64,000 nt of DNA from Promethearchaeota archaeon (GTDB lineage: Archaea; Asgardarchaeota; Lokiarchaeia; Sigyniarchaeales; SOKP01): contig JBHLNS010000001.1 in assembly GCA_048941285.1 (NCBI GenBank), positions 64,001-128,000 on the forward strand, read 5' to 3'. The notes below the pieces were generated by a model that worked only from the letters and a program-made list of their open reading frames with translations, made no database searches and had not been told where the DNA came from. The number at the start of each line of letters is the position of its first letter. The stretch's first letter is position 1. The position numbers and the translations under genes were made by a program. Positions 5,007 through 37,124 of the stretch are shown one piece after another.

Positions 5007-6026
5007 ATGGATAAAGTGGATGGATTATTTACTACTTTAGTAGGAAGTTGGCCTTTAAATAATACATATAACAACATGGTAAAGGTATTCACTGATTTAA
5101 TCCAAATAGGCATCGATTTTCCATGCTACCCGCAACTTTTATCTATGAATTATCAATTCCTATCACCATTATCTAGAATTATACCTCCATTAAAAGAAGT
5201 TGATGATAAATTTTATTTATATGAGGATTTTGAGATACCAAAGGAACCAGTTGCTCTCGAATATGGGAAATTTATAATAGACTATTTTAATGAACATCAA
5301 GATCTTAAAAAATGTATTAGTGGTACAAAAGCTTGTTTAACTGGTCCATTTACTTTAACATTCGAAACTATATTAAAAAACTCTATTGCTAAAGGCTTAA
5401 AACCATTAATTTTCGAAGAACCACGAGCAGTGATGGTCGATTGGATCGTGGATAAATTTGCTGAAATTATAAAGCAAATTGGAGCTGCTTATAGTGAAAT
5501 GAAAATAGATATAGTTTCTTGTGATGAGCCAATTCTAGGATTGTTAGTAGGGAGGAAAGTTTTGTTTCACTCAGAAGACTTTATCATTAAAACTATCAAT
5601 AAGGCAATATCTGGAATAAAAGGATTACCGTCAATACACGTCTGTGGTAGAATAAGTCCCTATCTAAGAGATATTCTTTTAAATACAAATGTGAAAATTT
5701 TAGACCATGAGTTTTGTACGAACGAAGAAAATTTTAAAGTTTTTGAGAAAAAACATTTCGAAGGAACTGATAAATTCTTAGCAATGGGAACTGTTCAATC
5801 AAAGTTTGTGCCAATTAAAAATAAAAAAATTAATGATTATGTAGAAAAAGTTGATTTTCTTAAAAGTTATATAAAAAGAGGAATAGATCAATATGGAAAA
5901 GAGAATTTAATAATCAAACCAGATTGTGGGTTCTATCCTTTGAAAGTTTTCGGAGAAAATGATGGTTATAAAATAGCAATCGAAAAAGTGAAAAATATGG
6001 TACTCGCTTTGAAAGCGTTAAAGTAA
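5007..6026 (+). CDS. Cobalamin-independent methionine synthase catalytic-domain family (MetE/URO-D-like)
   Basis: TTLVGSWP, KACLTGPFTL, DEP, HVCG and PDCG Zn-binding motifs. Confidence 0.8.
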   Translation: MDKVDGLFTTLVGSWPLNNTYNNMVKVFTDLIQIGIDFPCYPQLLSMNYQFLSPLSRIIPPLKEVDDKFYLYEDFEIPKEPVALEYGKFIIDYFNEHQDLKKCISGTKACLTGPFTLTFETILKNSIAKGLKPLIFEEPRAVMVDWIVDKFAEIIKQIGAAYSEMKIDIVSCDEPILGLLVGRKVLFHSEDFIIKTINKAISGIKGLPSIHVCGRISPYLRDILLNTNVKILDHEFCTNEENFKVFEKKHFEGTDKFLAMGTVQSKFVPIKNKKINDYVEKVDFLKSYIKRGIDQYGKENLIIKPDCGFYPLKVFGENDGYKIAIEKVKNMVLALKALK

Positions 6027-7996: not shown

Positions 7997-8346
7997 TTCT
8001 GACATTTATTTCAAAGCTTAGAATTCTGTCACACTTTTAAAATTTGCTCGATGGTGCTTTGCTTCTATCATCTCCGAACCAATTTTGAACAAACTAAGCT
8101 GAAACATGCTCGAAAGTTGTTTTAATGAGATTTTTGATACTTTTCGAAATGGTTAAAAAAAGCGACTACAGCATCCTTTTTGCATTTTCACTATTATTTT
8201 CAATGGATTTTAAATAAACTTCTGAGCTTTTCATAATCATCAAATGTATATGATATCCTAGAAATTATGTAAAGCTTATAATTGTATTTTTTATATAATT
8301 ATATTAAAAATTAAATTATGAATATTAAAAACTGAGATGTATTGAT

Positions 8347-33865: not shown

Positions 33866-34130
33866 TTTTATAGTGTCCTTTTTTCAAATTAAAGTTTATT
33901 TAAAATAACAAAAACAAATTTGTCTATTTAAATCTAATTGAAATTTAAAAATGCCCAAAACAGTAAAATTTTTAATATTTGCTATCTTTTAATACGTACA
34001 GTGGAAGACTCGTATTCTTATTTTTTTAATATGGCATATTATAACCATTATAAAGGATGTTTTCTCCCATGAATTGTGTTTCTTTTTCAAATTCTATTTA
34101 TGAAAGTATTATTTTGGAGGTATTTAGTTT

Positions 34131-37124
34131 ATGAGTTATACGTTTTCAAGAACAAAAATGATTGAAAAGATCAAGTTTGGACTTCTAAGCCCTGATGAAA
34201 TCCGAAAAATGTCAGCAGCCCGTATTATAACTGCTGATACATATGATGAAGATGGATTACCTATACCATCTGGATTAATGGACCAACGATTAGGTACCAT
34301 CGAACCTGGGCAACGTTGTCAAACTTGTGGGAATTTAGTAAGTAACTGTATGGGCCATTTCGGGCATTGTTAGAAACAATTAGATTCTAACGCCTAAATC
34401 GAATTAGCCCGTCCAGTTATTCATGTAGGTTATGCTAAAAAAGTCTTAAAAGTTTTACGTAGTATTTGTCCAGAATGTTCACGTTTGATGCTTACAGAGG
34501 AGGAAAAAGAGAAATTTAGAGTAGAACAAGTTAAACACCGAAAAATCTTTTTTGAAGGAGATGAAGACGCGGCAAAAATTGTCTTTAAACGAGCAAGAAA
34601 AGCAAAAAATTGCCCTTATTGCGAGGCAAAAAAGAAAAAAATAATTATTGAAAAGCCGACAACTTTTTATGAGGAAGAAGAAGGGAAAGGTTCACGGAGA
34701 ATAACTCCTATTGAAATATTAGAACGATTAAAAAAGATGAGTGATGTGGATCTTAGGATCCTTGGAATTTCTCCTGAAAATGCTCGTCTTGAATGGGTTG
34801 TTTTTACAGTTTTACCAATTCCCCCCGTATGTGCTAGACCCTCTATTACATTAGATAGTGGTATTCGATCTGAAGATGATTTAACACATAAATTAGTTGA
34901 CGTTATTAGAATTAACCAACGATTAAGAGAAAATATCGATGCTGGAGCACCTCATTTAATAGTCGAAGACCTGTGGGAGTTATTACAATATCATATTACA
35001 ACTTATTTTGATAATCAAGTATCTGGTATACCTCCTGCTAGACATCGATCCGGTAGAGCACTTAGAACCTTAACTCAGAGATTAAAAGGTAAGGAGGGAA
35101 GATTTAGAAGTAACTTGAGTGGAAAACGAGTCGATTTCTCTGCCCGTAGTGTAATATCCCCAAATCCTTATATTAGTATTAATGAGGTTGGTGTTCCAAT
35201 TGAAATCGCAAAAATTTTAACTATACCTACCAATGTTAATGATTGGAATATTGAAGAAATGAAACAGATGGTTTTGAATGGGCCTTTTAAACACCCTGGA
35301 GCAAATTATATTATAAGAAATGATCGTAGAAGAATTGACCTGCGATATGTCAAAAATCGGAAGATTATAGCTGACATGCTTGCTCCAGGTTTTACAATTG
35401 AGCGCCATTTAAATAATGGAGATTTAGTATTATTTAATCGCCAACCATCTCTTCATAGAATGTCGATAATGGCTCATGAAGTAAAAATAATGAAAGGAAG
35501 AACATTCCGGTTAAACCTAACAGTATGCCCGCCATATAATGCTGATTTTGACGGAGATGAAATGAACCTTCACGTACCTCAAAGCGAGGAAGCCCGTACA
35601 GAAGCAGAGCTATTGCTAAAAGTTCAAGAACATATACTGTCTCCAAGATTTGGTGGGCCAATATTAGGTGGTATTCAAGATTTTATTTCAAGCGTATTCC
35701 AATTTACAAGTAAAGAGTCTGTATACACTAAAAAGGATACTTTAAAATTGTTATATACTGGAGATGTATTTAAAAACAATCCTAAATTTAGCTTGGATCA
35801 ACTAACTCCTGTGTTATTTGACCCAGAACCAATGTATTCTGGAAAAGATATCTTCAGTACTTTATTTCCAGATGATCTAAATATTAAAGTTAAATCAAAA
35901 TTTTGTAAAAAATGTAAGGTATGTGAAAAAGAAGATTGCCCCTATGATGCTTATGTTGTAATAAAAAATGGAAATTTAATTACTGGAACTATTGATGAGA
36001 ATTCTTTTGGAGCTATGCAATCAAACAGTATTTTACAACGTATTATTAAGGATCATGGTAACGCACGAGGAAGAATATTCTTAGACAGTGCAACCAAGAT
36101 GCTATTATATGTTATTCGACAGAATGGAATGACAATGGGATTGGATGAAGTATATGTCCATGGTCATGCTTATGAAGCAATCCAAAAAATATTAGAAGAA
36201 GCAAATAAAGAATCTGAAAAATTAATTAACGCATTTTATGAAAATGATACAAAAATTCTTAGAAGAGCTCCTGGTCGTTCAATGAGGGAAACTTTAGAGT
36301 TAAGAATCCGCCAAGTATTGGCAGAAGCTAGAAAAAAAGCAGAAGAAACAGCAGCAGAATTCATTGGAGATGAAGCTCATTCTGTCATTATGACTAAATC
36401 TGGAGCTAGAGGTAATATATTAAATCTTGGACAGATGTCTGCTGTAGTAGGACAACAAGCAATTAGAGGAGAAAGAATTAATAGAGGATATAGTATGAGA
36501 ACGCTCCCTCATTTTAAAATTAATGATTTATCCCCTAAATCGCGAGGTTTTGTTTCTTCATCTTATAGAAATGGATTAAAACCAGAAGAATTCTTTTTTC
36601 ATGCTATGGGAGGAAGAGAAGGATTAGTAGATACAGCTGTAAGAACATCCACATCTGGATATATGCAACGTAGATTGGTAAATGCATTACAGGATATGGT
36701 TGTTGAAAATGATGGCACTGTTCGAAATTCTGATAAAAATATAATCCAGTTCTGTTTTGGAGATGACGGCATTGATGCAATGCACACTGATCATGGTGCT
36801 GCGGTGAACTTGGACGTTTTGTTATTAAAAGCAAAAGCTCTAAATGTTAATGAAGTGCGTGAAGAGATTAAAAAGGGCACTTCAACAAAAAAACTTGAAC
36901 CTAAGAAAAAAGATGAATCTAAGAAAAAAGATGAATCTAAGAAAAAAGATGAATCTAAGAAAAAAATAGCAGAAGAACCTAAATCTGAAGCAGAACCTGA
37001 AAAAGAAGAATTAGATGAAGATTTTTTAAAACAACAATTTGAACAAGAAACTGGGAAAAATGCAGTTTGGCGTGGTAAAGAAACCAATGCATACCTAGAA
37101 TGGAAAGAAAAAAGAATAAAATAA
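34131..37124 (+). CDS. rpo1N: DNA-directed RNA polymerase subunit A' (Rpo1N); join(34131..34367,34398..37124), 987 aa after removing a 30-nt intron
   Basis: Exon 1 ends CQTC...CMGHFGH; exon 2 starts [11 protein letters not shown] and contains [23 protein letters not shown] and [20 protein letters not shown] Shine-Dalgarno upstream of 34131. Confidence 0.95.
34368..34397 (+). other. Candidate bulge-helix-bulge/loop (EndA-type) intron in rpo1N mRNA
   Basis: 30 nt TGTTAGAAACAATTAGATTCTAACGCCTAA with in-frame TAG and TAA; 7-bp inner stem, 3-nt ATT bulge, 4-bp GGGC/GCCT helix, AAATC bulge and an exon-exon outer stem. Confidence 0.85.
36901..36965 (+). repeat. 18-bp coding tandem repeat (CTAAGAAAAAAGATGAAT x3.6) encoding KKKDES repeats in the Rpo1N C-terminal extension
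   Basis: Three perfect copies plus an 11-nt partial copy, read directly from the sequence. Confidence 0.95.

Follow-up and report, generated by a model that had tools for sequence, protein, structure and literature searches.

A putative bulge-helix-bulge intron in the RNA polymerase A' gene of an Asgard archaeon

The window is a 64,000-nucleotide stretch of contig JBHLNS010000001.1 from a Promethearchaeota archaeon (assembly GCA_048941285.1; contig positions 64,001 to 128,000, forward strand). It contains rpoA' (rpo1N), the gene for the A' subunit of RNA polymerase, in which 30 nt separate two coding segments (Table 1). The junction reads GGC CAT TTC GGG CAT TGTTAGAAACAATTAGATTCTAACGCCTAA ATC GAA TTA GCC CGT CCA. 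Translation of 34131-37124 places two stops in frame within the insert, TAG at 34371-34373 and TAA at 34395-34397. The uninterrupted open reading frames at the locus are 34131-34373 (80 aa) and 34485-37124 (879 aa, counted from the first TTG). According to a preliminary description of this DNA, the stop-bearing insert splits the motif GHFGH/IELARP and its removal leaves a single frame of 987 aa. Sequence and translation agree with the former statement and the codon count with the latter: 998 codons, less the terminal stop and 10 insert codons, leave 987 aa.

Comparison of exon 1 with the uninterrupted genes of two other genomes (G009 and G007) gave 98% identity over aa 1-185. Exon 2 is open, has no internal stops and is 86-94% identical to the sequences of 51 congeners. 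The source genome assembly (G000) comprises 101 contigs and is 94% complete with 3.4% contamination. A look for an intact rpo1N elsewhere in this genome, as the preliminary description had proposed, found no second copy. The exact 30-mer had no match in an independent assembly, in a metagenome scan that may omit near-identical records. In a search of 20 sequencing runs, run X1 held 0.70 of the sampled words and RNA runs X18-X20 held 0.05-0.12.

Table 1. Features of the rpoA' locus (window coordinates) and putative splicing genes of the source genome (contig coordinates).
Feature	Position	Strand	Remarks
rpoA' (rpo1N)	34131-37124	+	Reading frame of 998 codons
rpoA' exon 1	34131..34367	+	79 codons; C-terminal end CMGHFGH; from ORF list and translation
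Candidate 30-nt BHB-type intron, site A	34368..34397	+	In-frame stops
rpoA' exon 2	34398..37124	+	908 codons plus stop; starts IELARPV
Outer exon-exon helix h, 5' strand	34352..34361	+	8/10 pairs with 34401-34410
Central helix H, 5' strand GGGC	34362..34365	+	Pairs with 34392-34395; includes Gly wobble and first base of His codon
5' bulge AU|U	34366..34368	+	Predicted cut 34367/34368; agrees with protein-defined boundary
Inner helix h'	34369..34391	+	34369-34375 with 34385-34391; 9-nt loop 34376-34384
Central helix H, 3' strand GCCU (intron)	34392..34395	+	Helix 2: 100% of cells paired
3' bulge AA|AUC, 5 nt, relaxed	34396..34400	+	Predicted cut 34397/34398
Outer exon-exon helix h, 3' strand	34401..34410	+	From fold and 12-sequence pairing table
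EndA paralogue	G000 C70:1942-2556	-	PF01974 and PF02778
EndA paralogue	G000 C68:23972-24580	+	PF01974 and PF02778
RtcB	G000 C69:32455-33762		568 bits

The RNA around the insert (34340-34422) has a predicted folding energy of -29.9 kcal/mol, compared with -13.7 +/- 2.6 kcal/mol for 200 dinucleotide shuffles (z = -6.18); none of the 200 folded as well. The minimum free energy structure contains an inner stem GUUAGAA/UUCUAAC of 7 bp, a 5' bulge AUU and a 3' bulge of 5 nt, all as first described. The 4-bp central helix GGGC/GCCU of that description, with its G34362-U34395 pair, was not in this structure; instead, RNAfold gave a 3-bp helix, GGC/GCC, with G34362 paired to C34400. The 4-bp register is the one kept by relatives (see below). 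The exon-exon stem, said to have 8 of 10 pairs, was recovered as such in the row of the pairing table for the source genome.

The archaeal splicing endonuclease EndA cuts after the second base of each bulge in the motif called bulge-helix-bulge (BHB). Here, the bulges lie on opposite strands and flank the 4-bp helix, and flanking helices h' and h are predicted, h' with 7 bp. Cuts two bases into each bulge would give a functional product, G-H-I-E, in a protein of 987 aa. The preliminary description held that cuts AT|T and AA|A restore H-I exactly; this is the sole cut pair within +/-6 nt to yield that mRNA. Moving both cuts by 1 nt altered the product to G-Q-I or H-F-E, again as anticipated. 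We also applied a strict BHB test, which demands all four pairs of H and the first three pairs of h'; the same cut pair was the only one to pass. The 5-nt 3' bulge marks the motif as relaxed (HBh'-like), as the preliminary description rightly held, and is present in 12/12 introns at this site, designated site A. At a neighbouring site, B, the 3' bulge is 3 nt and the motif canonical (hBHBh'). We know of no assay of an Asgard EndA on a substrate with a 5-nt 3' bulge.

Related species carry homologous or neighbouring candidate introns in rpoA' at three sites. In family f1 (Promethearchaeia), inserts of 30-85 nt were present in 17 of the 128 genomes with a match, and rpoA' was interrupted in 9/52 matched genomes of genus g1. 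Sister families of the same class had none (0/22 matched genomes). Most genus g1 genomes, and all 22 of the sister families, encode one uninterrupted A' protein. In total, there are 19 introns in 17 genomes, all within the first 85 codons; the remaining 908 codons were free of inserts in the matched genomes of family f1. A further 11 species-level genomes have inserts homologous to that at site A (30, 31 or 40 nt). So do 8 metagenome contigs, three of them with the 31-nt form of G152 and one with the 40-nt form of G096. When any site is counted, 16 other species-level genomes have inserts of this kind. Lengths of 31, 35, 40, 50 and 85 nt, and of the 30 + 35 nt pair described next, are not multiples of three, and every 30-nt insert contains a stop. 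Genomes G024 and G043 have two introns, of 30 and 35 nt, separated by a 4-nt micro-exon. A single 65-nt intron in these genomes was rejected; the product would read H-I-K-L and there is no BHB. The site C introns (G048 and G049) have 3/4 central pairs and were counted as relaxed.

Carriers are nested among genomes that lack the insert. An exon tree required 16 state changes for 16 carriers; this is a FastTree of one gene, with 85 rows after collapsing identical first 370 nt and with G103, whose contig ends, left out, and it cannot tell gain from loss. The scattered distribution implies that gain, loss or exchange of these introns is rapid. We also looked for co-conversion of the flanking exon, which would point to lateral transfer of an intron. 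Carrier G043 and its sister G012 are 97.8% identical distally, a value that drops to 83% over the 100 nt upstream. Across 13 carrier/non-carrier pairs, the drop in flank identity was -6.7 +/- 3.3 points, not distinct from the -4.5 +/- 5.2 points of 55 non-carrier pairs.

The preliminary description had suggested aligning rpo1N across relatives; this revealed the patchy presence and absence set out above and, in addition, compensatory changes in the stems. The counts out of 17 that follow concern site A and site B introns (12 of them site A), with site C excluded. With cuts fixed by protein alignment, all four pairs of H form in 17/17. The BHB rule restores GHFGHIELARP in 17/17, including inserts of 31, 35, 40, 50 and 85 nt, through which translation could not proceed in frame; among genus g1 carriers of site A or B introns, the fixed rule did so in 7/7. 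Intron boundaries are unique in 10/12 site A introns. At the true cuts, 15/17 passed the strict test, as did 8 of 2,856 slid cut pairs and between 1 and 13 per 5,000 shuffled introns.

Exon-intron and intron-intron pairs covary. For the 12 site A sequences, 88.4% of cells in the pairing table were paired, compared with 77.8 +/- 1.2% after shuffling (reached in 0/500 shuffles) and 34-49% after sliding. The third pair of H joins the wobble base of an exon glycine codon to the intron, and is A-U in six rows, G-U in three, G-C in two and U-G in one. In the inner helix (helix 3), 93.5% of cells were paired and 8/9 pairs change on both sides. In the outer helix (helix 1), 79.2% of cells were paired, with no pair changed on both sides; because both of its strands are coding, it is neither support nor refutation. 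Glycine codons in interrupted alleles were GGA (9), GGG (10), GGT (1) and GGC (0); those in uninterrupted alleles were GGA (18), GGC (15), GGG (10) and GGT (28).

The source genome encodes two EndA paralogues and an RtcB (Table 1). One paralogue can be aligned over its whole length to PDB chain 3p1z_B (E 9e-35) and retains the histidine that is alanine in 3ajv_B; the other lacks this catalytic-type residue. Judged from these features, the two are the putative alpha- and beta-type subunits, as one would expect in an (alpha-beta)2 enzyme. Asgard archaea have an (alpha-beta)2 EndA with an L1 insert, a type that cuts relaxed motifs, according to the accessible part of PMC5829648. By gene content, the host has a predicted EndA for relaxed motifs and an RNA ligase, the relaxed cutting being taken from that part of PMC5829648.

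Taken together, the 30 nt at 34368-34397 are very probably an archaeal BHB intron inside the rpoA' coding sequence; all tests possible with sequence data came out in favour of this reading. We infer that EndA cleavage and ligation would take place in vivo, as follows. In the pre-mRNA, exon GGGC would pair with intron GCCU to form the 4-bp central helix. The 7-bp intron hairpin would stack on one side of this helix and the exon-exon helix on the other, leaving the 3-nt bulge AU|U and the relaxed 5-nt bulge AA|AUC. An EndA of the two-subunit alpha-beta type would then cut two bases into each bulge and RtcB would join the exons to give GGG CAU AUC GAA (G-H-I-E). The excised 30-mer would probably be circularised by RtcB. 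On unspliced RNA, translation would end at the second intron codon.

Other accounts of the insert were weighed against a BHB intron. The insert might be real and stay in place, with A' made as two polypeptides (80 aa and a re-initiated C-terminal piece), or some other RNA-processing activity might remove it. The two open reading frames for such a split do exist, and archaeal RNA polymerase large subunits are already divided, into A'/A'' and, in some, B'/B''. However, the first start after the stops is the TTG at 34485, and its use would delete a 29-residue stretch that is near-invariant in all relatives. The inserts differ widely in sequence and hold no conserved ribosome-binding or start signal; the features that they conserve are exactly those of a BHB. 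Also against a split protein, none of the 22 sister-family genomes is interrupted, and in the same genus a single chain is encoded by most genomes. We consider this account very unlikely. A broken gene, whether a pseudogene, an artefact of assembly or binning, or an allele that is defective in the population sampled, would fit the 101-contig assembly with its 3.4% contamination, and several related assemblies break at exactly the insert. Conversely, the gene is essential and present in one copy, and each exon is intact and evidently constrained. Like inserts in a further 16 species-level genomes, and in 8 metagenome contigs, carry compensatory changes that keep the fold, and random damage would not preserve frame-restoring BHB cuts in 17/17. 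This explanation is more improbable still.

The least probable of these accounts, in our estimation, is that the mRNA retains the insert and ribosomes skip across it, by programmed translational bypass as in T4 gene 60 and the yeast mitochondrial byps. A short insert with a hairpin and an early stop is superficially like gene 60, and here the hairpin lies at the start of the insert and the stop is its second codon. Bypass requires matching take-off and landing codons, however, and none match: in the 12 site A introns and the new metagenome variants, take-off would be at CAU or CAC, whereas the introns end in the triplet UAA, UAG, UAU or CAA. Bypass also leaves unexplained the covarying 4-bp helix that joins the 3' end of the insert to the exon, and the paired inserts 4 nt apart in G024 and G043. 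Further element classes were discarded. Group I and group II introns are hundreds of nucleotides long, not 30, and a Rfam scan of 34100-34700 (E <= 1) had a miRNA family as its sole hit, with 17 bits where the gathering score is 230. For a MITE or insertion sequence, there are no further copies in the genome: with nine introns as blastn-short queries against the whole source genome, the best non-self match was 16 nt (E 0.05). An intein is at odds with the in-frame stops and with alleles whose lengths are not multiples of three.

Beyond rpoA', four other genes in the congener G006 have 30-nt inserts that contain stops and show a BHB where the protein sequence places the cuts. They encode a cis-prenyltransferase, a NAD synthase, a CinA-like protein and a LOR-domain protein. 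No second mRNA intron was found in the source genome by comparison with 2 Mb of G006, a census blind to introns common to both genomes, by a genome-wide scan or among strict candidates. The scan required all four pairs of H and three of h', a length of 15-130 nt and, on either side, an open frame of 80 codons or more. It returned 4,997 candidates; decoys, made by moving the 3' cut by 1-2 nt, gave 5,008-5,342. There was no excess at any length or helix threshold; the background is adjacent genes. Eight strict candidates were 28-32 nt long; seven resemble gene boundaries with start signals and only rpoA' stands. Several apparent differences were set aside. A 'split' on contig C15 of the source genome is a 1-nt frameshift in an A9 run, and 47 'extra' nucleotides in G006 are a gene boundary, HdrA and MvhD-like proteins being separate there and fused in the source genome. 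Poorly aligned stretches hold a 4-aa insert at C68 and the 3-aa inserts to which source-genome frames on C1 and C61 correspond.

A broader reading, towards which we are slightly sceptical, is that mini BHB introns, typically of 30 nt, are a mobile or rapidly turning-over class of mRNA intron in family f1 that occupies the most conserved glycine-rich motifs of protein genes, namely rpoA' (three sites) and the four genes of G006. Such introns might be present or absent between near-identical lineages, and might sit 4 nt apart, so that one must leave before the central helix of the other is complete. If so, the closest prokaryotic relatives of eukaryotes would routinely splice mRNAs with protein enzymes, and introns would spread site-specifically without an encoded homing endonuclease.

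The pattern at rpoA' strongly indicates a tRNA-intron mechanism operating in the gene for the RNA polymerase catalytic subunit of an Asgard archaeon, from the lineage closest to eukaryotes. No published BHB intron in rpo1N was found in the literature searched, consistent with the view first taken of this insert, that no such case had been described. If the reading is right, gene callers would split or truncate an essential marker gene, and the polymorphic site would seem to be a place where assemblies break. Synthesis of RNA polymerase would hinge on the tRNA-splicing enzymes, and RNA processing would be tied to transcription capacity in a new way. The hot spot, with its three sites, 4-nt micro-exon and carriers among intron-less kin, would offer a natural series for the origin and movement of BHB introns. 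Alongside the four G006 genes, it would let one ask if protein-based mRNA splicing was common in the archaeal ancestors of eukaryotes.

The candidate intron resembles several known systems in part. Like T4 gene 60 and mitochondrial byps, it places a stop and a hairpin in a short untranslated insert within an essential coding sequence. Unlike these, rpoA' has no matching take-off and landing codons and the conserved pairing is between the exon and the 3' end of the intron. In HAC1/XBP1 splicing, Ire1 recognises stem-loops and tRNA ligase or RtcB joins the exons; Tanaka et al. reportedly dealt with RtcB and HAC1 in 2011. The proposed scheme is similar in that a protein endonuclease would remove an mRNA intron and a tRNA-type ligase would join the exons. 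The nuclease and motif differ, however, HAC1/XBP1 splicing is eukaryotic, cytoplasmic and stress-regulated, and no homology is implied.

Non-canonical tRNA introns with relaxed BHB motifs (HBh', hBH and BHL) are abundant in Asgard archaea and Thermoproteales, with multiple introns per gene and repeated gains inferred, in the accessible portions of bioRxiv 10.64898/2026.10.13.758758, PMC5829648 and PMC11291895. Those portions of the Asgard tRNA-intron papers make no mention of introns in protein genes. As far as the same portions describe them, the tRNA introns share with the rpoA' candidate the 4-bp H, the bulges, h and h', and would depend on the same enzymes. Unlike in tRNA genes, the exon half of the rpoA' motif must also encode an invariant protein motif, and unspliced RNA would give a truncated protein rather than a misfolded tRNA.

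The nearest parallel in a protein-coding gene is the cbf5 intron, on which Watanabe (in 2002) and Yoshinari (in 2006) are said to have published earlier work. In the accessible part of PMC2738675, this pre-mRNA intron of Crenarchaeota (Desulfurococcales and Sulfolobales) is short and BHB-like and is cleaved by EndA, which in its hosts is hetero-oligomeric, and as of 2009 archaeal pre-mRNA splicing had been confirmed for no other gene. Judged against that text, the two introns are alike in being short, in a protein-coding gene, flanked by a BHB-like structure and gained or lost among related species (PMC2738675). The cbf5 intron is experimentally confirmed, whereas that of rpoA' is predicted from sequence. 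Although the two would work alike, the rpoA' intron does not belong to the orthologous cbf5 family; its host gene encodes RNA polymerase A', not a pseudouridine synthase, and its host belongs to the Asgard/Promethearchaeia phylum. Also unlike cbf5, rpoA' has three alternative sites within about 110 nt, with introns 4 nt apart in two genomes, and its introns are distributed far more patchily.

The rpoA' gene (rpo1N), encoding RNA polymerase subunit A', is interrupted in the source genome, G000, by 30 nt containing two in-frame stop codons. The best reading of the sequence is that EndA and RtcB would splice these 30 nt, as a bulge-helix-bulge (BHB) intron, out of an essential mRNA. A preliminary description had proposed such an intron, removed by the tRNA-splicing machinery, and all its coordinates, for insert and fold, proved correct by sequence, translation and folding. 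Taking out the insert leaves 987 codons. The segment 34340-34422 folds at -29.9 kcal/mol, against a mean of -13.7 for 200 dinucleotide shuffles (z = -6.18), none of which was as stable. The insert region has no match in Rfam and the insert no further copy in the G000 genome. Features are listed in the table.

Coordinates of the rpoA' insert, contig ends and inserts in other genes (unprefixed numbers are window positions; C, contig; L, locus)
Feature	Location	Strand	Basis or G000 orthologue
RNA polymerase subunit A' (rpo1N, rpoA')	34131-37124	+	ORF translation
30-nt insert after codon 79	34368-34397	+	sequence and translation
In-frame TAG in insert	34371-34373	+	translation
In-frame TAA in insert	34395-34397	+	translation
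Inner hairpin	34369-75 with 34385-91	+	computed fold
3-nt bulge AUU	34366-68	+	computed fold
Short helix GG(G)C/G(C)CU between bulges		+	computed fold
5-nt bulge	34396-400	+	computed fold
Long exon-exon helix outside bulges		+	computed fold
Contig ends at intron hot spot	G063:C290; G090:C8, C64; G092:C173, C309; G103:C17; G127:C12; G138:C11		
cis-Prenyltransferase PF01255, insert DG|NRRW	G006:C1 ~1505xxx	+	L258, C9:5284-6018
LOR/zinc-ribbon PF04525, insert YWD|WGSG	G006:C1 1621948-1621977	-	L259, C30:60149-60880
CinA-like MoCF PF00994, insert SGGL|GPTFDD	G006:C1 ~1409xxx-1410xxx	-	L260, C39:23350-24144 (-)
NAD synthase PF02540, insert YGD|GGVD	G006:C1 ~2599xxx	+	L261, C51:36450-37235
NAD synthase, in-frame TAG and over-long match span	G042:C159:5958-6743	-	
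NAD synthase, in-frame TAG and over-long match span	G006:C1:2599151-2599951	+	

The protein encoded by exon 1 is 98% identical to the uninterrupted genes of congeners (genomes of the same genus). Exon 2 is open for 908 codons and shares 86-94% identity with its counterparts in 51 congeners; none of these has a stop within it, and the only split matches (G014 and G048) lie at contig ends. The preliminary description had held that an intact second copy would count against the intron. None was found in a search of the whole G000 assembly (3.55 Mb, 101 contigs, 94% complete), where the sole other match was to the low-complexity tail (C15:2214-2357). This tail, at the A' C-terminus (36930-37124), is rich in lysine and glutamate and repeats KKKDES three times.

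We surveyed 54 genomes of the genus, including G000. Among the 52 with an rpoA' match, 42 have GHFGHIELARP uninterrupted and nine have an interrupted gene; in one, the contig ends at the site. Three positions carry inserts. Site A, the G000 position following the His codon, holds 30 nt in G000, G069, G045, G024 and G043. Site B, 7 nt further on (...CAUAUAG|AG...), holds 85 nt in G021 and G059 and 35 nt in G024 and G043. Site C, ~105 nt upstream (DEDGL|PIP), holds 30 nt in G048 and G049. Thus G024 (L033) and G043 (L042), both on minus strands, carry A and B together, separated by a 4-nt micro-exon, AUAG. In a class-wide survey (161 genomes, 150 matched), interruptions were confined to the family of this genus, f1, with eight more carriers in five other genera. 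These have site A inserts of 30 nt (G142, G102, G111, G159, G103), 31 nt (G152) or 40 nt (G096), or a 50-nt site B insert (G100). None of the 22 matched genomes from six other families is interrupted. In total, 17 of the 128 f1 genomes with a match carry introns: 12 at site A, five at site B and two at site C. In at least six of the 128, a contig terminates at or close to the site.

JGI metagenome contigs were scanned for sequence patterns in which an insert separates MGHFGH from ARPV. Eight contigs were retrieved, each with its insert at site A. Three have the 31-nt form and one the 40-nt form; there are also two new 30-nt variants. That these eight contigs carry site A inserts shows such insertions to be real parts of genomes in natural populations. 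Several records (L066, L063, L064, L092, L131 and others) have an rpoA' 89-94% identical to the genus under MAG titles naming other taxa (Nanopelagicaceae bacterium, Thorarchaeota, Odinarchaeota, Hermodarchaeota, Hodarchaeota). They look like mislabelled or mis-binned records.

Cuts were set from protein and nucleotide alignment alone, and only afterwards was the presence of a BHB asked. In 10 of the 12 introns at site A, any shift of the boundary would alter the mRNA. At the protein-defined cuts the 4-bp central helix (H) is fully paired in 17/17 site A and B introns, and splicing by the BHB rule yields GHFGHIELARP in all seven genus genomes with either intron. A strict test, requiring H 4/4 and the first three pairs of the intron-internal helix (h'), was passed by 15 of the 17 at the true cuts, by 8 of 2,856 alternative cut combinations at offsets of no more than 6 nt, and by 1-13 of 5,000 shuffles of each intron. 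In every site A intron, the exon-exon helix (h) begins only past a 5-nt 3' bulge. Hence, site A is relaxed and HBh'-like, its outer helix being displaced; the preliminary description had likewise called the G000 motif relaxed. Site B is canonical hBHBh'. Site C has 3/4 central pairs and a 9-bp h', and is therefore relaxed. In G024 and G043, two bases of the intron B central helix (AUAU/GUAU) come from exon upstream of intron A. Since this helix has one mismatch in unspliced RNA (AAAU), and is complete only without intron A, the sequences suggest that A would be removed before B.

Twelve 30-nt introns from site A, together with flanks of 16 nt, were aligned without gaps (eight genomes, four metagenome contigs). 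Paired cells made up 88.4%, against 77.8 +/- 1.2% with partners shuffled (0/500 reached 88.4%), a control that overstates significance because the sequences are related. Free of that kinship effect are the pair types and the control with partners slid by 1-3 columns, which paired only 34-49% of cells. The central helix is paired in 100% of cells; its third pair, joining the exon Gly wobble base to an intron base, is A-U in six, G-U in three, G-C in two and U-G in one. The inner helix is 93.5% paired, with both sides changed in 8/9 pairs. Both strands of the outer helix are coding; it is 79% paired with no double change, and is thus neutral on the intron reading. The Gly codon is GGA 9, GGG 10, GGT 1 and GGC 0 in interrupted alleles, site B included, and GGA 18, GGC 15, GGG 10 and GGT 28 in uninterrupted alleles, which take in two site C carriers.

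These data bear on three other explanations. Ribosomes might bypass the insert, but the take-off and landing codons do not match. A' might be made as a two-piece protein, yet the first start codon does not come until 29 codons downstream. The gene might be dead, or the insert an artefact. None of the three explains the frame-restoring geometry or the exon-intron covariation.

The proposed introns are patchily distributed. A FastTree phylogeny was built from rpoA' exon sequence (85 distinct rows, 1,850 columns), leaving out every insert and the IEL codons; on it, the nearest kin of each carrier is intron-less. It requires 16 state changes for 16 carriers (site A 11, site B 5, site C 2), and intron-less sisters lie within ~0.04-0.05 substitutions/site of G045, G049 and G043. 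Because of these counts and close sisters, the introns must be lost, gained or exchanged over a short time scale, the tree being blind to which. Assemblies of six related genomes are broken in or next to the first ~100 rpoA' codons; our guess is that presence/absence polymorphism within populations may be the cause.

To look for inserts beyond rpoA', stop-to-stop ORFs from G000 and from 2.0 Mb of G006, a congener assembled as a single contig, were searched reciprocally by tblastn. This gave ~1,320-1,350 ORFs with a clean match each way, introns common to both genomes being invisible. The rpoA' intron was the only G000-specific insert recovered. G006 has four 30-nt stop-bearing inserts, each within a conserved glycine-rich motif and uninterrupted in the G000 orthologue, on which Pfam assignments were made. 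At protein-defined cuts, H is 4/4 in three and 3/4 in one; h' spans 7-9 pairs in all four, never with more than two mismatches, and two are canonical hBHBh'. Stop-bearing NAD synthase inserts occur in two of 45 matched congeners (G006, G042); in G010 and G044 this gene has a TAA without extra length.

Other differences emerged. In G000, a 1-nt frameshift in a nine-A run (C15 ~8060-8080), either an assembly error or real, splits a 370-aa gene intact in G006. HdrA-like and MvhD-like sequences form one G000 ORF (C31_-1_90, 1,162 aa) and two G006 genes (C1, ~1829600-1833140). G006 HdrA paralogues have an in-frame TGA opposite a G000 Cys (CR*GVNI vs CRCGVNI), as would be expected for selenocysteine.

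G000 encodes RtcB and two EndA paralogues of ~200 aa, each with N-terminal and catalytic Pfam domains. The C70 paralogue aligns over its full length to PDB chains 3p1z_B (E 9e-35) and 3ajv_B (E 2e-33), which we take to be the catalytic subunit of the Aeropyrum pernix heterotetramer. It keeps a His where 3ajv_B has Ala, and has no gaps through the K-P-R loop region, presumably the crenarchaeal specific loop. The C68 paralogue lacks that His, as would a structural beta subunit. ARAGORN called 31 tRNA genes in G000, 19 with introns, a rough count because the program detects anticodon-loop introns only. Intron lengths were 9-78 nt, apart from a single, probably spurious, 1,953-nt call; non-canonical introns probably mask many tRNA genes. 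According to PMC5829648, non-canonical introns are cut by no enzymes other than the (alpha-beta)2 and epsilon2 types, and the EndA of Asgard archaea is (alpha-beta)2 with the L1 insert. A 2026 preprint on Asgard tRNA introns reports two EndA paralogues in 44/60 genomes and describes the substrate range as unmeasured (bioRxiv 10.64898/2026.10.13.758758).

A literature search of partial coverage, without supplements, found BHB introns published neither for RNA polymerase genes nor for any protein-coding gene of Asgard archaea, agreeing with the preliminary description, which knew of no rpo1N case. The 2009 cbf5 paper gives archaeal pre-mRNA splicing as confirmed, by then, for no other gene (PMC2738675), and in the reference list of a 2025 paper the cbf5 work is still the sole citation for protein-gene introns. 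The three-site hot spot in rpoA', the 4-nt micro-exon between introns A and B, and the uniform 30-nt inserts within conserved motifs of several genes all look new. In mechanism, the proposed rpoA' intron, whose splicing we infer, would resemble the crenarchaeal cbf5 intron and relaxed tRNA introns.
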